Positions 4,635-24,393 of a stretch of DNA of 32,000 bases are shown here, piece after piece (the first letter of the stretch is position 1; each line of letters starts with the position of its first letter). The position numbers and the translations under genes are program-made. The stretch is from Bacillota bacterium (GTDB lineage: Bacteria; Bacillota; UBA4882; UBA8346). The DNA lies in assembly GCA_029776205.1 (NCBI GenBank), contig JAKOTQ010000107.1:20035-52034 (forward strand). The letters are read 5' to 3'. Under the pieces are notes generated by a model. That model did not search any database. It saw nothing but the letters and a program-made list of their open reading frames with translations, and had not been told where the DNA came from.

Positions 4635-6557
4635 TTATTTTGGAATATTTTGGAGAATTTGAACCAATTCTGCGATTTTATAGGGTTTAGTCACTTCAGC
4701 AAAAAAACCGTAAGCTTTGGCATTGGACATGATCGGATCATGGGAATAACCGCTGGAAACGATGGCTTTAACATTGGGATCGAATTGCTTAAGTTCTTCC
4801 AAAGCGGCTTTTCCGCCCATTCCGCCGGGAACGGTCAGATCCATGATTACGGCATCAAAAGGTTTGCCCATTTTTTTATACTCCCGGTATAAAGTAACCG
4901 CTTCTTCTCCGTCTCGGGCCGTCTTGACTTCATAACCGAAGGTTTCCAACATTTCAGAAGTGGCCTGAAGGATTGATTGGACATCATCCATGATCAAAAT
5001 GCGGCCTTTGTCTTTCAAACGTCGTAACCGGGTTGGGTGGCGAGGAGGTATCCTTTCCTCAGCTGCCGGAAGATAAATGTGAAAAGTTGTTCCTTCATTG
5101 ACAACGGATTCGACGGAGATATGTCCCTGGTGTCTGGAGATAATCGACAGGGCCATAAACAAGCCGAGGCCGTTGCCATTTTTTTTGGTGGTATAATAAG
5201 GGTCAAATATTTTATTGAGGTATTCTTTGGGTATGCCAACACCATGGTCTTTGATCTGAATCTTAATATATCGGCCGGGTTTCAGATTGAGCAAGTTTTC
5301 CGGTTGAACGATGGTATTGGTTGCGGTAAATTGAATGGTACCGCCATTGGGCATAGCTTGATCAGCGTTGAGAAAAAGATTGCTGATGACTTGGCTGATC
5401 TGCCCGGCATCAACATTAGCCGGCCAAAGGTCATCGGCAATGACATAACTCCATGTGCTCTTGGAGCCACGGAGCACGAATTCAGCGGTGTCAATTAATA
5501 CTTCTTTCAAGGAGGTGGGTTTGAGAATTGGTGCGCCTCCTCTGGAAAAGGTCAGTAATTGGCGGGTAAGGTTGGATGCGGTAGTTACCGTATCTTCGAT
5601 TCGGGAAAACAGGTTGCTAATATCGTTGCCCCGGGCTAGTTTTAACTGTGCCAGCTGGACATTGGATAAAATACTGGCCAGAAAGTTATTGAAATCGTGG
5701 GCGATTCCTCCGGCCAGATTGCCTAAGACTTCATATTGCTGCATTCTTTCAAAATCTTGCTTCATTCGCTCGGACACATCGATAAAGACGATGACTCCGG
5801 CGATGATTTGACCGGAAACGTCCCGAATGGGAGCGGAATTGGCTTCGATCACGGTATAAGAACCATCGTGGCATTGAATATGGATGATTTCATCCCGGAC
5901 CGTTTCTTCATGGAATATGGAACGGTACAAAGGCCATTCTTCAGCTGAATACGGTGTACCGTCCACATGGAAACCTTTGAGTTCTTTGAAACTGGTGATG
6001 GGCTCTTTCCAAATCTCCTGGCTCATTCGGTTGCTGAGGATAATTTCTCCCGACGGGGCCGTGCCAATGACAACACCGAAAGGCAATTGATCAAGGACTG
6101 CTCTTAAAAAAGCTTCCTGCTGTTGGGTTAAGTTCATGGCAGCTTCCAGGGCATGGCTGGATTGAACTTCGGCAGTGGTTTCCTTTAGATAAAGAATGAG
6201 CCCGATGACTTGGTCGTTCGCATTTTTCACCGGTGATAATGTCCAGTTCCAATAGGTGGTTCCCCGCCAAGGCTCATGGTAGTAGATGAGAGGTTTGGCG
6301 CGGTAGGTTATGGCTTTGCCGCTTTCTCTGGTTTGGATAAACAATTGTTCATAATCGTTATCCGGAAAAATTTCGAAGTGATTTCGTCCGAGGAGTTTTT
6401 CTTTGGGGTAACCGGAGCCTAGAGCATAGGCTTCATTAACATAGATAAATCTGAAGTCTCGGTCAAGAAAAGCGATTTGTAAATCGGATTGGTTTAAAAT
6501 GGTCTCCAGGATGGAAATGCCCCATTGGTCTTCATAAGTCTTGAAAAAATCCTTCAC
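4635..6557 (-). CDS. hybrid sensor histidine kinase (PAS domains, HisKA, HATPase_c, C-terminal receiver)
   Basis: GTG start with GGAGGA 5 nt upstream. H-box GGIAHDFNNFL, N-box NLFLNADQAM, G-boxes DHGVGIP and GNGLGL. The C-terminal receiver shows ILIMDD...VIMDLTVPGG...VTKP. Confidence 0.9.
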   Translation of the reverse strand: MKDFFKTYEDQWGISILETILNQSDLQIAFLDRDFRFIYVNEAYALGSGYPKEKLLGRNHFEIFPDNDYEQLFIQTRESGKAITYRAKPLIYYHEPWRGTTYWNWTLSPVKNANDQVIGLILYLKETTAEVQSSHALEAAMNLTQQQEAFLRAVLDQLPFGVVIGTAPSGEIILSNRMSQEIWKEPITSFKELKGFHVDGTPYSAEEWPLYRSIFHEETVRDEIIHIQCHDGSYTVIEANSAPIRDVSGQIIAGVIVFIDVSERMKQDFERMQQYEVLGNLAGGIAHDFNNFLASILSNVQLAQLKLARGNDISNLFSRIEDTVTTASNLTRQLLTFSRGGAPILKPTSLKEVLIDTAEFVLRGSKSTWSYVIADDLWPANVDAGQISQVISNLFLNADQAMPNGGTIQFTATNTIVQPENLLNLKPGRYIKIQIKDHGVGIPKEYLNKIFDPYYTTKKNGNGLGLFMALSIISRHQGHISVESVVNEGTTFHIYLPAAEERIPPRHPTRLRRLKDKGRILIMDDVQSILQATSEMLETFGYEVKTARDGEEAVTLYREYKKMGKPFDAVIMDLTVPGGMGGKAALEELKQFDPNVKAIVSSGYSHDPIMSNAKAYGFFAEVTKPYKIAELVQILQNIPK

Positions 6558-7418: not shown

Positions 7419-7562
7419 GTATTTTGGCCGTTTGAAATTTCTTAGATATTCATGGGCGAAATCAAAAGTTTTTTTTGAATATAACAATATACGAAACGCA
7501 GATGCTCATTTTAAAACAAAATGCAATACACTGGTTAGAGAACTCCTAAAGGAGGAATGATA

Positions 7563-8105
7563 ATGAGTATCAACCATGTTCCGATTTCAAGTCATCAACA
7601 TGCGAGGGTTGAGACCCAGCGGATCAAAACCTTAAAAGTGATTGGCGAAGCTGTTGGCCAATTGGTATTGGAAAACAAAGCAGATATCGATGCGATTAAG
7701 ATTATCAAAGTTGATGCTGAACTTCGGGATACTACCGATCATTTATTCAAAAATAAAGTGGTTAAGCAGGGAATCATTCATAAGCAAATTCTGTATGTAG
7801 ACCCCTATGATGTGGTACGCCATGCTTCCGAGGATGTCCCGTTTATGTTGACTGTGGATATTCCGGGGGTTGAACCCAATCCGTTTACGGAGGTTCAAAA
7901 CCATCTGCTCGATCTGGAAGTTGATTTTACGCTGAAACCGGCCTGCCATGATAAGAAGGGAGAAATCATTCAAAAGACAGTGGCTCATATTTTGGTAAGG
8001 GTTTCTGAATGGGCCCTTGTGGATGTTGTCACCAAACATGATATTTTCCCGAAGGTAAGCCATTCCAAAGGGTATAAATCCTTTGTCAAATGTTATAACC
8101 GGTAA
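7563..8105 (+). CDS. DUF3794 (SipL/SPOCS-like) domain protein
   Basis: GGAGG lies 7 nt upstream of ATG 7563; the tracked ATG 7557 is only 1 nt from the SD. The pattern KVIGEAVGQLVLEN...KVVKQGIIHKQILYVD is typical of DUF3794 repeats. Confidence 0.55.
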   Translation: MSINHVPISSHQHARVETQRIKTLKVIGEAVGQLVLENKADIDAIKIIKVDAELRDTTDHLFKNKVVKQGIIHKQILYVDPYDVVRHASEDVPFMLTVDIPGVEPNPFTEVQNHLLDLEVDFTLKPACHDKKGEIIQKTVAHILVRVSEWALVDVVTKHDIFPKVSHSKGYKSFVKCYNR

Positions 8106-8471: not shown

Positions 8472-8499
8472 TTTACTTTTAGGCAAAGCTTGATATAAT
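8472..8499 (+). promoter_or_regulatory. sigma-A type promoter with extended -10 for the T-box leader
   Basis: TTTACT (8472-8477), 16 nt spacer, TGaTATAAT (8491-8499). It sits about 30 nt upstream of the first T-box helix. Confidence 0.5.
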
Positions 8500-8530
8500 A
8501 AATGGTAATTAATGTTACTATAGTTTGACC

Positions 8531-8838
8531 GCGATGACAGAGGATAGTAAACCAGATCGCTTTTTGTACAGAGAACCCCGGGCGCTGAGAAGGGGTAAAA
8601 AAGAACTGGTTGAACAGGCTCTTGAGCTTTGCACCGAGACTATTCGGGAGAAATTCTCAATGGTTTAGGCTGTAACGGGTGCGCCCGTTAACGCGCCAGA
8701 GTATACGTATTTCTATGTTTGTTTGTGGAAATACCGTACTTGTTGAGGCTGATACTGTCAAGTGTCGGTAAATTGGGGTGGCACCACGGGATTAAAGCTC
8801 TCGTCCCCAGGATTATATCCTGGAGACGGGAGCTTTTT
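8531..8838 (+). promoter_or_regulatory. T-box riboswitch leader (transcription attenuation); specifier read as CAG (Gln)
   Basis: K-turn GCGATGA/TGAGC, AGTA plus GAA S-turn, distal AGAGA and GCTGAGA. F-box CCGTTA near 8686. T-box sequence AAATTGGGGTGGCACCACGGG at 8770-8790. Antiterminator GGGG[TGGCACC]ACGGGA...TCTCGTCCCC competes with a 16-bp terminator at 8796-8834 followed by T5. Confidence 0.9.
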
Positions 8839-8947
8839 ATATGTTTAAAAATACGGTACCCCTTTGAATGTGGGAAAGATTGGCGTTATAAAGGCGGCGT
8901 TTGAAATCAACAGAAAAGGATAATGACGAATATGGGAGGATCTATTC

Positions 8948-10966
8948 ATGAATGACTTTGATGGAAAAGAAAACAATGTTTTGCATGTTTATGAAAGCAG
9001 GCCTCAATTTCCCAAGCGGGCAGTGATTACCGGCGGGATGCCCTATGGGATTAAAGACCTTCATCTTGGGCATATTGGCGGTGTGTTTGTTCATGCGGAC
9101 ACGTTTGCCCGTTTTTTAAGAGATCGAATCGGTAAAGAAAATGTGATCTTTATATCGGGGACGGATTGTTATGGCTCGCCAATCGTGGAAAGCCATCGGC
9201 AGTTGGTGGAGAAGGGGGAGTTCGACGGCACTCTCGATGATTTGGTCCGGTATTATCATGAACGCCAAAAAGAAGTATTGGAAGCATATTGCATTAGCCT
9301 CGATTTTTATGGGGCGTCAGCCATTGGACGTGCTGCCGAGATTCACCGGCATGTCTCCGCGGATATTATCCGGAAATTATATCAGAACGGTTTTCTGACG
9401 AAGTTGACCACTTCCCAGTTTTTCGATAGTGAGCACGGAGTATTTTTAAACGGGCGGCAAGTGGTGGGGCGGTGCCCGATAGCTGGTTGCTCGTCGGAAC
9501 GGGGTTATGCGGATGAGTGTTCTCTGGGGCATCAATATATGCCGGCTGATTTGATTAATCCCGTCAGTACCTTGTCGGGAAAGAAACCCGAGATGAGAGA
9601 GGTGACTAACTGGTATTTTAAACTGGATCAATTTCACGATCGTCTGGTGGAGTGGGTTGAATCCCTCAAGCAATCGCCGGATAGCCGGAATTTTGTGATT
9701 CGAAGTATTCAGGAGTTTTTAGAGCCGCCGGTTATTCATGTTAAACGGGAGCAGATGGATATTTTACAAACCTTGCAGACCCAACTTCCCCAATTTACGC
9801 TGTACGATGAAGCCAACAAATCGTCGGTAATTATGATCTTTGATAACGTTGCAGAGCGGGAGAAAGCCTGTGCCATTCTTACTGAACACAAAATCCGTTA
9901 TCGTACCGGGAAAACCTTGGTTCCGTTCAGACTGACCGGAAATATCGAATGGGGCATTCCGGCGCCTGTTATTGAAGGATTGGCGGATTTAACAGTTTGG
10001 GTTTGGCCCGAATCTCTTTGGGCCCCGATCTCATTTACCAAGACTTGTCTTGAACTCCGATACAGGGATCCGGAATCTTGGAAAGATTGGTGGTGCTCAA
10101 AAGAGGCTCAGGTTTATCAATTTATCGGAGAAGATAACGTGTATTTCTACGGGCCTGTTGAGATGTCGTTGTGGATGGCTTTACAATCCGGTTCGCCTTC
10201 GGTCGATCCGCCGGAGGGGGAAATACAGCTGCCCAAGCTCATTGTGAACAATCATATTCTCTTTCTTAATAAGAAGGCAAGTAGCAGCGGAGCTGTAAAA
10301 CCGCCGACTGCAAAAGAGCTGCTTGAATACTATACGCCGGAGCAGCTGAGAGCTCATTTTCTTGGGTTGGGGCTTGGGATTAAAAGTGTAGGATTCCAAC
10401 CTAAACCTTTCAATCCCAGAGCCAAAGAGACAGACAATGACCCTGTACTTAAAGAAGGAAACCTTTTAACCAATGTCTTCAACCGGGCGGTTCGTTCCTG
10501 TTTTTATACTGCTCAGAAATACTATGATGGAATAATTCCGGTGGGAGATATCAGTAAAAACGTTTTGAAGGAGTCGCGGGAGGCCATTCTTGAATACGAA
10601 AAACTGATGGCCCAATTTAACTTTCACTTAGTGATGAATTTGTTGGATACCTATATCCGGAGTATCAACAAAGACTGGGCCAAAAATATGAAAGAAGCGG
10701 AGGAAAGCCAAAACGAAGACCTCCGGCGGCAAGTGCTGATCGATACATTCCACCGGGTTCGGACGGCTCTCGTTCTTATGCATCCCATTGCTCCTTCCGG
10801 GACGGAGATGGTCCGGGAATATTTAAGAGTAGGTGAGGCCATTTGGAGCTGGGAACGAATCTTTGAGCCTATTTATCACTTTATGGAGAACCCGGAAACC
10901 CACAAACTAAAATTCCTTGAACCAAGAGTAGATTTCTTTAAAAAACATCCCAGCCAATTTCTTTAA
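8948..10966 (+). CDS. metG: class I aminoacyl-tRNA synthetase of the methionyl-tRNA synthetase (MetG) family, divergent paralogue-like
   Basis: GGGAGGA lies 7 nt upstream of the ATG. HIGH motif is HLGH (9062-9073). MetRS-like segments: GTDCYGSPI, CP...GYADEC...PADLINPVSTLSGKKPEMREVTNWYFKL, WGIPAP, FIGEDNVYFY, NVFNR and KDWAK. The KMSKS position reads KASSS (10274-10288). Confidence 0.8.
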   Translation: MNDFDGKENNVLHVYESRPQFPKRAVITGGMPYGIKDLHLGHIGGVFVHADTFARFLRDRIGKENVIFISGTDCYGSPIVESHRQLVEKGEFDGTLDDLVRYYHERQKEVLEAYCISLDFYGASAIGRAAEIHRHVSADIIRKLYQNGFLTKLTTSQFFDSEHGVFLNGRQVVGRCPIAGCSSERGYADECSLGHQYMPADLINPVSTLSGKKPEMREVTNWYFKLDQFHDRLVEWVESLKQSPDSRNFVIRSIQEFLEPPVIHVKREQMDILQTLQTQLPQFTLYDEANKSSVIMIFDNVAEREKACAILTEHKIRYRTGKTLVPFRLTGNIEWGIPAPVIEGLADLTVWVWPESLWAPISFTKTCLELRYRDPESWKDWWCSKEAQVYQFIGEDNVYFYGPVEMSLWMALQSGSPSVDPPEGEIQLPKLIVNNHILFLNKKASSSGAVKPPTAKELLEYYTPEQLRAHFLGLGLGIKSVGFQPKPFNPRAKETDNDPVLKEGNLLTNVFNRAVRSCFYTAQKYYDGIIPVGDISKNVLKESREAILEYEKLMAQFNFHLVMNLLDTYIRSINKDWAKNMKEAEESQNEDLRRQVLIDTFHRVRTALVLMHPIAPSGTEMVREYLRVGEAIWSWERIFEPIYHFMENPETHKLKFLEPRVDFFKKHPSQFL

Positions 10967-14548: not shown

Positions 14549-14587
14549 ATAGGAAATATCTCACTTGTTATGAGGTGGTTTACAACA

Positions 14588-16303
14588 ATGGAGGATAGCG
14601 CTAAGATGGAAGATCTTAAAAATAAAGTTGACGAATGTGAAACGTCGGCGCCAGTTCCTGATTTGCCGTCTAATTTTATACAAGATATAATCAACGAAGA
14701 CCTTAAAAATGGCAAAAATGACGGAAGGGTCCATACCCGGTTCCCTCCCGAACCTAACGGATATTTACATATCGGACATGCGAAATCCATTTGCTTGAAT
14801 TTTGGCATCGCCGCTAAATACGGCGGATTATGCAATCTCCGGTTTGATGACACCAATCCTTCCAAAGAAGATACGGAATATGTAGAATCCATTATGGAAG
14901 ATGTCCGTTGGCTGGGTTTTGATTGGGACGACCGTCTTTTTTATGCTTCCAGTTACTATGAACAGCTATATCAATATGCTGTCGATCTGATCAAAGCGGG
15001 TAAAGCCTATGTATGTGAGTTGACTCCCCAGCAAATCAAGGAATATCGGGGGACCCTGACAGAACCTGGAAAAGAAAGCCCCTATCGGAACCGGTCGGTT
15101 GAAGAAAACTTGGACTTATTTGCACGGATGCGGGCCGGTGAGTTTCCGGACGGCTCCATGACTCTGCGGGCGAAGATCGATATGAGCTCTCCCAATATCA
15201 ATATGCGAGATCCGGTGCTCTATCGGATCATGCGAGTTCATCATCACCGTACCGGCGATGAATGGTGTATTTATCCGATGTATGATTATGCCCATCCTAT
15301 TTCCGATGCCTTAGAAGGGATTACTCATTCCATTTGTACATTGGAATTTGAAGATCACCGGCCGCTTTACAACTGGGTCATTGAAAACTTGGATTTACCG
15401 AGCAAACCTCGGCAAATTGAGTTTGCTCGTCTGAACATGACCCATACGGTGATGAGCAAACGGAAATTGTTGGACCTGGTGAAACGAAATATCGTCTCCG
15501 GCTGGGATGATCCGCGGATGCCCACCATTTCCGGTTTGCGTCGCCGGGGCTATACTCCTGAGTCCATTCGGGCCTTTTGTGAAAAAATCGGTGTGGCTAA
15601 AGCCAACAGCACAGTAGAGATTGCCCTTTTGGAACATTGTCTCCGGGAAGATCTTAACGCTCGGGCGCCCCGGGTTATGGCGGTGTTAAATCCTTTAAAA
15701 GTGGTTATTGACAACTATCCCGATGATTTGGTGGAAGAGTTTGAAGCTGAAATCAACCCGGAAAAACCGGAAATGGGGACCAGAAAAGTTCCTTTTTCCA
15801 AGGTGATTTATATTGAGCAGGATGATTTCACTGAAAATCCGCCAAAAGGATATTTCCGGTTAGCCCCGGGTCGGGAAATCCGCTTAAAGCATGCTTATTA
15901 TATTACCTGTCAGTCGGTGGTGAAGGACGAAAAGACCGGCGAGATCCTTGAGGTTCATTGCACCTATGATCCGGAAAGCCGCGGGGGATGGACACAAGAC
16001 GGCCGTAAGGTTAAAGGAACCTCCCATTGGGTATCGGCAGCTCATGCCATTCCTGCCGAAGTCCGGCTCTATGATCATCTGTTTTTAGATGAATACCCGG
16101 GCGAAGATGCGACGGTCAATCCTAATTCTGTGGTTTACCTGACCCATTGTATGGTAGAGCCCAGTTTGGCAGCAGCGAAGCCCGGAGACCGCTTCCAGTT
16201 TTTACGGCAAGGATATTTCTGTGTGGACCCGGATTCCACGGATAAGCGCTTAGTGTTCAACCGGACAGTTGGCTTGAAGGATTCCTGGGCTAAAAAATCG
16301 TAA
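14588..16303 (+). CDS. glnS: glutamine--tRNA ligase (GlnRS)
   Basis: [26 protein letters not shown]...[10 protein letters not shown] is near-identical to canonical GlnRS. KMSKS-type loop is VMSKRKL. GAGGTGG lies 8 nt upstream of ATG 14588, so the tracked start 14570 probably overextends. Confidence 0.95.
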
Positions 16304-21683: not shown

Positions 21684-21746
21684 AAAAGCGGGTGTCCGTA
21701 CCGGTTTCCAAATTCTACGTTTTAAAGTTTCGTGGGAGGTGTAATT

Positions 21747-22955
21747 ATGGGAGAACGGATTTATTTCGACCATGCGGCGACAACCGGGGTTGACCCGAAA
21801 GTATTGGAGGCGATGATTCCGTATTTCAGTCAAACTTTCGGCAATCCGTCGAGCATTCACTCTTTTGGGAGGGAAACCCGGAAGGCTATTGAGGAAGCCC
21901 GTCAGATTGTCGCAGCGGAAATTGGGGCAGCTGCTCCCAATGAAATATATTTTACAGGTAGCGGTTCTGAAAGCGACAATATGGCGTTGCGCGGGGTCGC
22001 CGAGGCTTATCGGGATAAAGGACGACATATTATCACATCATCGATTGAACATCATGCGGTACTGGATACCTGCCATTATTTGGAGAAAAACGGTTATAAG
22101 GTCACATATTTGCCGGTTGATTCCGATGGATTGGTTCATCCGGAGACTGTACTGGACGCGTTAACACCAGAGACCATTTTAGTCTCCATTATGCATGCCA
22201 ATAATGAAATTGGAACCATTCAACCCATTGCCGAAATCGGGAAATTACTTAAAGAGCGGAACATTTTGTTCCATACGGATGCGGTTCAAACGGTAGGGAC
22301 GATTCCTGTGAATGTCCAGGATTTAAACGTTGATTTGCTGTCCATGGCCGCTCATAAATTTTATGGGCCAAAAGGTACCGGTGCTTTATATATCCGACGC
22401 GGGGTCAAGGTAAATCCGTTGATTTACGGAGGTGCTCAGGAACGGAACCGGCGGGCCGGGACGGAAAACATCGCTGGAATCGTCGGACTGGCCAAAGCAT
22501 TGCAACTGGCCAACAGCCATTTGGAAGAGAACCGGGCCCGAATAACGGAACTTAGGGATTATCTGATTGACCGGGTGTTGTCAGAGATGGATTACGTCCG
22601 GTTAAATGGGCATCGCACCAAGCGGCTGCCGGGAAATGCCAATTTCAGTTTCGATTTCATTGAAGGTGAGTCCCTCCTTCTCAATCTTGATTTAAAAGGG
22701 ATTGCAGCGTCCAGCGGTTCAGCATGCACTTCCGGATCATTGGAACCGTCCCATGTTCTACTGGGTATTGGATTGTGCCATGAAACAGCCCATGGTTCTC
22801 TCCGGGTTTCCTTGGGGAAAGGGAACACCCGTGAGGAAGTAGATTACTTTATGAGCGTTTTGCCGGAGATCGTGAATAAACTCCGGGCTATGTCGCCTTT
22901 ATATCATGCAGAAACTGAACGAAAGGAGTGCGCGTCATGTACACGGAAAAGGTAA
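21747..22955 (+). CDS. iscS: cysteine desulfurase (NifS/IscS type)
   Basis: GGGAGGTG lies 5 nt upstream of ATG 21747. Motifs: YFDHAATT, SSIEHHAV, PLP-Lys in SMAAHKFYGPKG, active-site loop SSGSACTS. Confidence 0.9.
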   Translation: MGERIYFDHAATTGVDPKVLEAMIPYFSQTFGNPSSIHSFGRETRKAIEEARQIVAAEIGAAAPNEIYFTGSGSESDNMALRGVAEAYRDKGRHIITSSIEHHAVLDTCHYLEKNGYKVTYLPVDSDGLVHPETVLDALTPETILVSIMHANNEIGTIQPIAEIGKLLKERNILFHTDAVQTVGTIPVNVQDLNVDLLSMAAHKFYGPKGTGALYIRRGVKVNPLIYGGAQERNRRAGTENIAGIVGLAKALQLANSHLEENRARITELRDYLIDRVLSEMDYVRLNGHRTKRLPGNANFSFDFIEGESLLLNLDLKGIAASSGSACTSGSLEPSHVLLGIGLCHETAHGSLRVSLGKGNTREEVDYFMSVLPEIVNKLRAMSPLYHAETERKECASCTRKR

Positions 22956-23311
22956 TGGACCATTTTCAAAATCCCCGTAATGTCGGTGAACTTAGCGATG
23001 CCAACGGCATTGGTGAAGTGGGCAATGCTACCTGCGGGGATATTATGAAGATATATATCAAAGTTGAAGATAACCGGATTGTGGATATTAAATTTAAAAC
23101 CTTTGGTTGCGGTGCTGCTATCGCCACCAGCAGCATGGTAACGGAGATGGTGAAGGGCAAGACGATAGAGGAGGCCCTCCAAGTTACCAACAAAGCGGTA
23201 GCTGAGGCATTGGATGGCCTTCCTCCTGCAAAAATGCATTGTTCAAATTTGGCAGCTGACGCATTGCATAAGGCCATCGAAAATTATCGGGCAGGTCAGA
23301 ACGGCGGATGA
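22937..23311 (+). CDS. iscU: Fe-S cluster assembly scaffold protein (IscU/NifU N-terminal type)
   Basis: AAGGAG lies 8 nt upstream of ATG 22937. Motifs: VMDHFQNPRNVG, GNATCGD, FKTFGCGAAIA, KMHCSNLA. Confidence 0.9.
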   Translation: MYTEKVMDHFQNPRNVGELSDANGIGEVGNATCGDIMKIYIKVEDNRIVDIKFKTFGCGAAIATSSMVTEMVKGKTIEEALQVTNKAVAEALDGLPPAKMHCSNLAADALHKAIENYRAGQNGG

Positions 23312-24393
23312 AGCAGCGGGTCATTATGGCGATGAGCGGAGGGGTCGACAGCTCGGTGGCAGCAGCCTTACTCTTGGAAGAGGGATATGAAGTGATCGGC
23401 GTCACGATGCAGCTCTGGGATAATGATCTTCCCTATGGCACTGAGGTGGAAGGGGGTTGCTGTTCCCTGAGTGCAGTGGATGATGCACGGGCAGTGGCTA
23501 ACACCTTGGGTATTCCCTATTATGTGCTGAACATGCATGCTCCATTTCGAGAGAAAGTGATTGACTATTTTGTTGATGAGTACCTGCAGGGGCGGACCCC
23601 CAATCCCTGTATTGTCTGTAATAAAAGCGTCAAGTTCGATCTTTTGCTGGAGAAAGCAGCTTCGCTGGATGGAGATTTTCTTGCCACCGGTCATTATGTC
23701 CGTCGCAGCTTTGATGCTGAAAGAGGGCGATTTATCCTTCGTCGAGGCGTCGATCTTTCGAAAGATCAAAGTTATGTGTTGTATGGAATGACCCAACCTC
23801 AGTTAGCAAAGACTTTATTTCCGCTGGGTGGTTATACCAAAGCCGCCATTCGGGAGAAAGCGGCTGAATTGGGTTTGAGAGTGGCCTCCAAACCGGACAG
23901 CCAGGAGATCTGTTTTGTTCCGGACCAGGATTATGGCCGCTTTATTGAGGATTATCAGCCCGGGTCTGTCCAGCCCGGCAATATTGTGGATGAGAGTGGC
24001 AAAGTCTTGGGACGCCATCGCGGGATCATTCATTATACCATCGGGCAGCGGAAAGGGCTGGGGATTGCCGCTCCGGAACCCTTGTTTGTCAAGGAGATTC
24101 GTCCGGATACCAATGAAATCGTGGTGGGGCCGGCTGAATCCGTTTTCTTTAAAGGCCTGTTAGCCAATGAGCTCAATTGGATCCTTTGGGATGATTTAAA
24201 CGGGGAATTGGAAGCCCAAGCCAAGATTCGTTACAGTGCCCAGCCTGTACCGGCACTAATAAAACCGGAACCTGGCGGCCGGGTCCGTGTAGAATTTGAA
24301 ACGCCTCAACGGGCAGTTACTCCGGGACAGGCTGTGGTCTTTTACCAACAGGATCTGGTTTTGGGTGGAGGAACCATCGTGCAGGCGATATAA
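23308..24393 (+). CDS. mnmA: tRNA 2-thiouridine(34) synthase MnmA
   Basis: PP-loop AMSGGVDSS, NPCIVCN, ATGHY, DQSYVL. The start overlaps the iscU stop (ATGA). Confidence 0.95.
   Translation: MKQRVIMAMSGGVDSSVAAALLLEEGYEVIGVTMQLWDNDLPYGTEVEGGCCSLSAVDDARAVANTLGIPYYVLNMHAPFREKVIDYFVDEYLQGRTPNPCIVCNKSVKFDLLLEKAASLDGDFLATGHYVRRSFDAERGRFILRRGVDLSKDQSYVLYGMTQPQLAKTLFPLGGYTKAAIREKAAELGLRVASKPDSQEICFVPDQDYGRFIEDYQPGSVQPGNIVDESGKVLGRHRGIIHYTIGQRKGLGIAAPEPLFVKEIRPDTNEIVVGPAESVFFKGLLANELNWILWDDLNGELEAQAKIRYSAQPVPALIKPEPGGRVRVEFETPQRAVTPGQAVVFYQQDLVLGGGTIVQAI

Follow-up and report, generated by a model that had tools for sequence, protein, structure and literature searches.

A 32,000-nucleotide stretch of a Bacillota genome (contig JAKOTQ010000107.1; analysed over its full length and hereafter called the window) carries a T-box leader at positions 8525-8811, directly ahead of an open reading frame (ORF; 8948-10966) for a 672-residue class I aminoacyl-tRNA synthetase derived from methionyl-tRNA synthetase (MetRS). 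We found that this leader, like the T-box leaders of orthologous genes, presents a glutamine codon in its specifier loop. Taking the locus as a whole, we propose with moderate confidence that a T-box responding to tRNA-Gln controls this MetRS-derived enzyme, whose tRNA substrate is most likely tRNA-Gln as well.

The Rfam T-box family RF00230 matched positions 8525-8811 of the plus strand over the full length of the model (positions 1-219) with 102.8 bits against a gathering threshold of 93 (E 7.2e-22), and it was the sole Rfam family matched anywhere in the 32-kb window. A further 12 orthologous leaders reached the same threshold. The element is a complete transcription-attenuation T-box leader, running from a promoter through Stem I and an antiterminator to a strong terminator, and is composed as follows (numbers preceded by L denote other loci of the family).

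8472-8499, plus strand: putative sigma-70-type promoter of the leader, TTTACT and TATAAT with a 16-nucleotide spacer and an extended -10 TG (10/12 in a consensus scan).
8525-8811, plus strand: T-box leader RF00230, full-length covariance-model match.
8531-8628, plus strand: Stem I, with the kink-turn (K-turn) GCGAUGAC / UGAGC, helix AGAG/CUCU, the specifier internal loop and helix AACCAG/CUGGUU.
8543-8549, plus strand: 5' side of the specifier loop, GAUAGUA, including the S-turn partner AGUA at 8546-8549 (covariance-model alignment, fold and RNAalifold).
8570-8574 and 8580-8591, plus strand: AG bulge of Stem I (AGAGA) and distal loop, respectively (Rfam alignment and fold).
8612-8618, plus strand: 3' side of the specifier loop, GAA-CAG-G, comprising the S-turn GAA (8612-8614), the specifier CAG (8615-8617; Gln) and the trailing purine G8618.
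8676-8690, plus strand: conserved hairpin CGGGUGCGCCCGUUA, which the Rfam model places in its Stem IIA/B part with high posterior probability and which is kept in L082.
8748-8769, plus strand: Stem III hairpin (Rfam alignment).
8773-8810, plus strand: antiterminator helix with the 7-nucleotide T-box bulge UGGCACC at 8779-8785 (Rfam alignment and ViennaRNA fold).
8779-8782, plus strand: UGGC, predicted to pair with G73-C-C-A at the 3' end of the tRNA, as expected of a T-box from the established mechanism.
8794-8838, plus strand: intrinsic terminator, a hairpin at 8794-8836 overlapping the 3' half of the antiterminator, with the U-run UUUUU ending at 8838.
8934-8939, plus strand: ribosome-binding site GGGAGG, 8 nucleotides 5' of the ATG, read from the sequence.

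An unconstrained ViennaRNA fold of 8531-8628 recovered Stem I with its GC/GC clamp, the K-turn, the helices AGAG/CUCU and AACCAG/CUGGUU and the loop GAUAGUA/GAACAGG. The 5' half comprises GCGAUGA (8531-8537), AGAG (8539-8542), AGUA (8546-8549) and AACCAG (8550-8555), and the 3' half CUGGUU (8606-8611), GAA (8612-8614), CAG (8615-8617), G8618, CUCU (8619-8622) and UGAGC (8623-8627). The antiterminator and terminator folds obtained with ViennaRNA are mutually exclusive. The terminator has a minimum free energy of -32.6 kcal/mol (z = -5.27), none of 200 shuffled sequences was equally stable, and a terminator scan gave a partial match.

An 87%-identical orthologue on a 692-kb bioreactor contig (L082:2653-2930) has a leader like that of the window, with the promoter kept and an identical GAACAGG loop. 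Its T-box core reads UGGGG-GGCACC, lacking the U of UGGC, and scores under the Rfam threshold, which points either to an indel introduced during assembly or to a riboswitch that is defective. The spacer of ~110 nucleotides between the terminator U-run and the start codon (8839-8947) is largely deleted in this orthologue and is therefore probably dispensable.

The assignment of the leader rests on the specifier. RF00230 aligned GAA-CAGG to its consensus GAAauuca, with one deletion after GAA and the top posterior probabilities ('*'), placing CAG in the codon columns and G8618 in the trailing-purine column. The same layout, GAA-NNN-purine-helix, is found in the crystallised glyQ leader (GAA-GGC-A). 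The default ('+0') frame of the T-box database TBDB takes nucleotides 2-4 counted from the 3' end of the specifier bulge (PMC7778990) and thus likewise designates CAG. A single AUG occurs in Stem I, within the K-turn (GAUGA).

Orthologues were collected from GTDB genomes (80 loci) and, using a single-protein query, from metagenomes (8 loci), together with the encoding contigs. Among the 18 T-box-bearing leaders, including that of the window, the specifier was CAG in nine, CAA in nine and AUG in none. The 3' side of the loop reads GAA-CAG-G in the CAG leaders (the window, L082, L089, L001, L002, L003, L007, L012 and L091; a U follows CAG in L002) and GAAA-CAA-G in the CAA leaders (L020 from Anaeromicropila herbilytica, L028, L030, L033, L036 from Clostridium amylolyticum, L044, L050, L080 and L090 from Proteiniborus sp. 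MB09-C3), where the covariance model puts CAA in the codon columns. A single nucleotide lies between the specifier and the helix, G in 17 leaders and U in the remaining one.

The helix under the loop covaries (AGAG/CUCU, GGAG/CUCC, AAGG/CCUU, GAGG/CCUC) and is fully paired in seven of the eight CAG-group leaders that were parsed; the eighth, L002, has one A.C mismatch. A MAFFT alignment of Stem I from 16 leaders shifted the upper helix of the GAA-CAG group relative to that of the GAAA-CAA group, and a structure-based parse and RNAalifold were used instead. For the nine CAG-group leaders RNAalifold gave 22 pairs, 18 of them with compensatory changes and both loop-flanking helices among these, which fixes the boundary of the loop. 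The original prediction, which had mapped these Stem I elements, seen CAG in the specifier slot and found no AUG in a specifier-like context, is thus borne out by the covariance-model alignment, the unconstrained fold, covariation and the orthologous leaders.

The specifier codon follows the G+C content of the Rfam-scored leaders, with CAG at 49-53% and CAA at 38-43%, a split that would look like a synonymous third-position change. The '+1' frame was excluded, since it yields AGG or AAG, coding for different amino acids, and the '-1' frame (ACA) was dropped since in the CAG leaders it runs into the invariant S-turn. Glutamine is the sole amino acid consistent with both leader groups, and we conclude with high confidence that the leader reads tRNA-Gln. 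A T-box-like core at L085 was discarded as coding sequence.

The UGGN element provides a further indication. It reads UGGC in 10 of the 18 leaders and UGGU in eight, and the two alternate even between near-identical leaders (L001 and L091, respectively). Bacterial tRNA-Gln identity uses G73, and tRNA-Met has A73 (PMC9976931). The alternation fits a G73 tRNA and not an A73 tRNA because G73 can pair with both C and U, whereas A73 cannot pair with C; this discriminator pattern would support tRNA-Gln over tRNA-Met. The earlier proposal that UGGC predicts G73 is supported by this pattern, but UGGC itself is not universal among the leaders.

The regulated protein matched PF09334 (tRNA-synt_1g; E 3e-61) together with a weak match to PF08264, and lacked PF00749 (tRNA-synt_1c), the core of canonical glutaminyl- and glutamyl-tRNA synthetases (GlnRS and GluRS). 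It failed the MetRS equivalog models (NF001100, 230 vs 587 bits; TIGR00398, 176 vs 336; others lower), and NCBIfam release 20 (June 2026) contained no model for the family. A PDB sequence search returned MetRS of P. abyssi and E. coli as best solved relatives, with E 5e-59 for true MetRS as compared to ~1e-7 to 2e-7 for PyrN. The AlphaFold model (pLDDT 81, pTM 0.86) likewise matched MetRS by Foldseek (E 4e-29, TM 0.66-0.8). The MetRS fold claimed at the outset is hence confirmed, yet at scores far under the MetRS equivalog cutoffs. The model also shows an inserted ferredoxin-like domain (beta-alpha-beta-beta-alpha-beta) of ~60-70 residues at ~262-320, which has no counterpart in MetRS and which all 88 orthologues carry.

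The protein shares 66-87% identity with more than 100 clusters, most of them nameless or called 'class I tRNA ligase family protein'; some sources label the family MetRS, a name that PGAP declines. The family occurs in at least 595 one-genome-per-species GTDB genomes. Among the matches listed, identity is at least 56%, as compared to 26-27% to E. coli MetRS, and the hosts include Clostridia and Erysipelotrichia as well as metagenome-assembled genomes assigned to Spirochaetales, Acidobacteriota, Oligoflexia, Latescibacterota, Anaerolineales and others. No member was found in phage records, and matches in the plasmid collection were the R. albus megaplasmid and mislabelled pieces of chromosome. 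By these comparisons the family is distinct from MetRS, highly conserved and MetRS-derived. A 716-residue homologue from the actinobacterium Collinsella aerofaciens (L095:5974-8124; 47% identical) lies beside the queuosine genes queA and queH; it keeps Y401, N397, Q405, KASSS and the insertion, and has E for M at 31 and Y for F at 363.

Functional residues were mapped by aligning the 88 orthologues, with E. coli MetRS numbering taken from the literature.

8948-10966, plus strand: regulated gene encoding the 672-residue MetRS-derived class I synthetase paralogue, with HLGH at 39-42, D73, W353, F363, N397, Y401, E405, KASSS at 443-447, N512, R516 and the inserted domain at ~262-320.
HIGH motif: kept as HLGH or HFGH, with H39, G41 and H42 invariant.
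D52 (alpha-amino binding): D73, 88/88.
W253: W353, 88/88.
Y260 (sulfur contact): F363, 87/88.
I297: N397, 88/88.
H301 (sulfur contact): Y401, 88/88.
W305: position 405, E in 78 and Q in 10 of 88.
KMSKS motif: KASSS, invariant.
N391 and R395 (readers of C34): N512 and R516, 88/88.

The MetRS-like domain of PyrN (PDB 9l8v), solved with a bound glutamyl-adenylate analogue, holds the Glu gamma-carboxylate with Arg425 (bioRxiv 10.1101/2025.08.22.671884). This arginine lies four residues after the D-N motif, at the position equivalent to H301 of MetRS and Y401 of the present family. The position therefore appears to contact the tip of the side chain and to tune specificity, with His for Met, Arg for Glu and Tyr in this family. 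The Met-binding loop also contains a 3-residue insert as compared to MetRS. Together, the alignment suggests a remodelled, polar pocket, an intact adenylation machinery and a retained anticodon-binding domain. Such a polar, uncharged or acidic pocket would make Met or Glu an unlikely substrate, and Gln, nearly isosteric with Met, would fit it. The original prediction had left open whether a MetRS paralogue was rewired to tRNA-Gln or whether the enzyme does not use Met and tRNA-Met; the latter is favoured because the family has lost both sulfur contacts of MetRS, with substitutions at the two positions in 87 and 88 of the 88 orthologues, respectively, and the enzyme very probably does not use Met.

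In the window the regulated gene is monocistronic, followed by a convergent aldo-keto reductase gene, and a canonical glnS lies 3.6 kb downstream, a synteny kept in L082.

14588-16303, plus strand: canonical glnS (GlnRS), passing NF011291 (887 vs 681 bits) and TIGR00440 (772 vs 426), with a short sigma-70 leader.

The ORF listing starts glnS at 14570, and the ATG at 14588 has the better Shine-Dalgarno sequence. No Rfam riboswitch was matched 5' of the gene, in line with the conventional, T-box-less glnS that had been described there. Across the family, the GluRS gene gltX was the only recurrent neighbour, found on the same strand at 22 of the 88 loci in both gene orders: mostly directly upstream, downstream in two Erysipelotrichia and one gene away in Ruminococcus, with gaps of 2-19 nucleotides between gltX and the family gene at the three loci inspected. 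A recurrent cupin, hydroxylase, gatCAB or other partner was not found among 132 flanking ORFs; an amidase beside the Proteiniborus gene was dismissed as generic and not GatA (244 vs 481 bits), and it is not a recurrent neighbour. Rfam found no T-box on the gltX-linked operons, nor was there one in L092.

The 352-kb replicon pRUMAL02 of Ruminococcus albus 7 encodes, side by side, a 'glutamate--tRNA ligase family protein' scoring 279 bits against a cutoff of 290, a 171-residue protein and the family protein. In Monoglobus pectinilyticus gltX, annotated as a regular GluRS, and the family gene stand beside the dcw cluster. The 171-residue protein between the two R. albus genes (L093:131-2398) had no Pfam or NCBIfam match. 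The gltX copies linked to the family often encode a divergent GluRS of 543-552 residues with an N-terminal extension, scoring 279-319 bits vs the cutoff of 290 (L093, L018, L023, L024, L029, L056, L059, L062, L068, L070, L072 and L073).

Based on these features we propose the following mechanism. When charging of tRNA-Gln is low, the 3' end of the uncharged tRNA would be free; the specifier CAG would pair with the anticodon CUG, and UGGC with G73-C-C-A. The paired uncharged tRNA would stabilise the antiterminator, the terminator at 8794-8838 would not form, and RNA polymerase would read through into the ORF at 8948-10966. The enzyme would then most likely aminoacylate uncharged tRNA-Gln, probably with glutamine, serving in the window organism as a starvation-inducible second route beside the constitutive canonical GlnRS. 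Whether glutamine in particular is attached we regard as close to evenly balanced. Tentatively, the family may represent a third, independently evolved route to Gln-tRNA-Gln, that is, a class Ia, MetRS-derived glutaminyl-tRNA synthetase that would have spread horizontally and be encoded in some hosts in an operon with gltX and in others behind a Gln T-box, where it would assist GlnRS upon starvation. The proposed horizontal spread may include Clostridia, Erysipelotrichia, Coriobacteriia, Spirochaetota, Acidobacteriota and others.

Several observations weigh against a tRNA-Gln-charging enzyme under tRNA-Gln control. The organism already has a canonical GlnRS, so that there is no evident need for another enzyme charging Gln and a particular reason for it would be required. 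Of the loci examined, only about one in five has a T-box. The loop-closing pair of the CAA leaders is non-canonical (A.C or A.G), and their reading frame depends on the covariance-model alignment and on agreement with the CAG leaders. The pocket geometry is derived from an alignment, and KASSS lacks the second Lys of KMSKS, although P. abyssi MetRS has KFSTS. At the position equivalent to W461, which in MetRS stacks against C34 (residue 577 here, encoded at ~10676-10678), 51 of the 88 orthologues have W, 34 have M, two have Y and one has L, and anticodon reading may thus differ between family members. Finally, neither a tRNA-Gln gene nor a dedicated tRNA gene was found beside the family gene in the window and the 88 loci, where only unrelated Pro, Leu, Arg and Thr tRNAs occurred.

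Residue 577 is W or Y in the T-box-linked members and M only in gltX-linked and other members, a dimorphism that may mark sub-families reading tRNA-Gln isoacceptors differently. A degenerate 61-nucleotide tRNA-like element lies ~150 nucleotides downstream of the family gene on the minus strand at L086:5105-5165 and L087:5105-5165; its score against the Rfam tRNA model is 33 bits and ARAGORN does not recognise it. Both its acceptor stem and its D arm are truncated, and the anticodon loop reads CUCACAU.

Alternative explanations were weighed against the same evidence. The enzyme could act on tRNA-Gln but attach glutamate and thereby feed GatCAB, as the tRNA-Gln-specific GluRS2 of Helicobacter does. 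A T-box reading tRNA-Gln, the linkage to gltX and the ability of a MetRS scaffold to bind Glu, as in PyrN, would all agree with this. We nevertheless consider it unlikely, as the family has no Arg where PyrN holds the gamma-carboxylate, Tyr401 and the acidic or amide residue at 405 (E/Q) should disfavour Glu, the window organism has a direct GlnRS, and gatCAB occurred in no neighbourhood examined. An ATP-dependent GatCAB analogue, amidating Glu-tRNA-Gln to Gln-tRNA-Gln together with the adjacent GluRS, would account for the gltX linkage, for the linked copy often being a divergent GluRS at or below the cutoff, and for the pair on a secondary replicon in R. albus 7. However, the signal read by a T-box is uncharged tRNA, so that an enzyme working on uncharged tRNA-Gln is the expected target; this favours an aminoacylating role over an amidotransferase-like one, and Glu-tRNA-Gln would read as charged. 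A class I active site moreover places the end of the side chain well away from the ATP alpha-phosphate, the protein has no glutaminase domain and the linked gltX of Monoglobus is annotated as a regular GluRS, leaving this activity very improbable. Rather unlikely is also a tRNA-independent adenylate-forming enzyme, a hydrazine-synthetase MetRS-like domain or other amino-acid ligase, with its expression tied to glutamine or nitrogen status via tRNA-Gln. T-boxes do control non-synthetase genes, the PyrN MetRS-like domain was among the Foldseek matches, and hydrazine-synthetase domains combine HLGH with a degenerate KMSKS (KFSTG). Yet the protein is far nearer to true MetRS (E 5e-59) than to PyrN, the 132 flanking ORFs include no cupin or N-hydroxylase partner, and the anticodon-domain residues N512 and R516 are kept throughout; the setting is one of housekeeping genes, next to gltX and, in Monoglobus, at the dcw cluster, and the family is highly conserved and widespread in strict anaerobes.

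A second MetRS that its T-box cross-wires to glutamine starvation would explain why the top Pfam, NCBIfam, PDB and Foldseek matches are all MetRS, why some sources annotate it so and why the C34-reading residues are kept. Against it, the equivalog cutoffs were missed by a wide margin (the scores reaching about half of them or less), both sulfur contacts are replaced family-wide, PGAP declines the MetRS name, and identity to E. coli MetRS is 26-27% vs at least 56% within the family. UGGC is furthermore incompatible with A73, and Gln control of a MetRS would be without precedent or rationale, making this account very unlikely. Least of all do we expect that the specifier was misassigned and another tRNA is read, such as tRNA-Thr by ACA in the '-1' frame. 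Conservation of AACARG does mean that ACA (and AAC) also occurs in all 18 leaders, and the loop boundary is soft in the CAA group. ACA, however, overlaps the invariant S-turn GAA in the CAG group and breaks both positional rules, whereas the covariance model places CAR in the codon columns of every leader and the variable position is exactly the third codon base, following leader G+C. UGGC in addition calls for G73, whereas tRNA-Thr usually has another discriminator, and the gltX linkage points to Glx.

The class of Gln-specifier T-boxes is already known. In the literature searched, neither this synthetase family nor a Gln T-box ahead of a MetRS-like gene was found described, and the literature on Gln-tRNA-Gln recognises two routes only, GlnRS or GluRS plus amidotransferase. 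A T-box reports on the tRNA served by its gene, and here that tRNA is consistently tRNA-Gln for an enzyme filed as MetRS or left nameless. If the enzyme charges tRNA-Gln, it would be a new type of synthetase, implying that one class I subfamily can acquire the amino-acid specificity of another, and the annotation would be corrected for a gene in at least ~600 species-level genomes, including those of the gut bacteria Ruminococcus, Monoglobus and Collinsella. Even with another substrate, the family would be a conserved translation-linked enzyme. Mismatches between T-box specifier and gene annotation could likewise be mined for other mis-annotated synthetases.

Further genes were noted around the locus and its relatives. 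Upstream in the window lie a PAS-containing hybrid histidine kinase/response regulator (4635-6557, minus strand) and a SipL/SPOCS-domain sporulation protein (7557-8105, plus strand), which marks the host as an endospore-forming Bacillota. Further downstream, a nifS-type cysteine desulfurase gene (21732-22955) is followed by mnmA (23308-24393), encoding the 2-thiouridine-34 synthase for tRNA-Glu, tRNA-Gln and tRNA-Lys; MnmA-type genes are the nearest neighbour of the family gene in three other loci. A thiamine pyrophosphate riboswitch ~25 nucleotides after the family gene (L072:4477-4583) and a flavin mononucleotide riboswitch upstream of it (L085:1518-1639) both belong to neighbouring genes. 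An unexpected observation was a full-length glnS on more than 100 enterobacterial plasmids of ~90 kb (e.g., NZ_CP047013.1 and NZ_CP029365.1; E. coli, Salmonella), an accessory GlnRS on mobile elements.

In its architecture the leader resembles the known transcriptional T-box leaders (RF00230; B. subtilis tyrS and glyQS), with which it shares the K-turn, the S-turn specifier loop, AG bulge, distal loop, Stem IIA/B, Stem III and an antiterminator with UGGN bulge that competes with a terminator. It differs from the usual T-boxes by the rare Gln codon CAG, by a trailing purine that is G instead of A and by a specifier amino acid that mismatches the family annotation of the downstream gene. Among 23,535 T-boxes TBDB lists 226 with a Gln specifier, 11 of them CAG, one of the rarest classes (PMC7778990). 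The protein resembles MetRS of the MetRS1 type with zinc knuckle (P. abyssi 1rqg, E. coli 1qqt) in its Rossmann fold and CP domain, Cys/His knuckle, HLGH, alpha-amino Asp, W253 equivalent and helical anticodon-binding domain with the N391 and R395 equivalents; it departs from MetRS in the pocket changes, KASSS, the inserted ferredoxin-like domain and the predicted control by tRNA-Gln instead of tRNA-Met. With the hydrazine synthetases (PyrN, Spb40, Tri28; PDB 9l8v) it would have in common a MetRS scaffold retargeted through the H301-equivalent residue, along with a degenerate KMSKS. PyrN, in contrast, has Arg at this site, works with a fused or paired cupin and transfers to hydroxylamine and not to tRNA, whereas the family protein has Tyr and no cupin.

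As a regulatory arrangement, the locus recalls duplicate synthetases under T-box control, such as thrZ and tyrZ of B. subtilis. A further T-box-regulated duplicate is the class I lysK of B. cereus (PMC2916919). In these cases, as proposed here, a second synthetase for an amino acid served by a constitutive enzyme is induced by the uncharged cognate tRNA; those paralogues belong to the same amino acid's family, or to the known class I LysRS, whereas the paralogue in the window stems from the family of another amino acid. Its proposed product, Gln-tRNA-Gln, and its association with gltX and glnS are shared with canonical GlnRS (class Ib, GluRS-derived) and with the GluRS plus GatCAB route. To GlnRS it has no homology beyond the class I core and, if a glutaminyl-tRNA synthetase, it would have arisen independently from a class Ia MetRS ancestor. 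Should the tentative third route to Gln-tRNA-Gln hold, the situation might be comparable to the duality of class I and class II LysRS.

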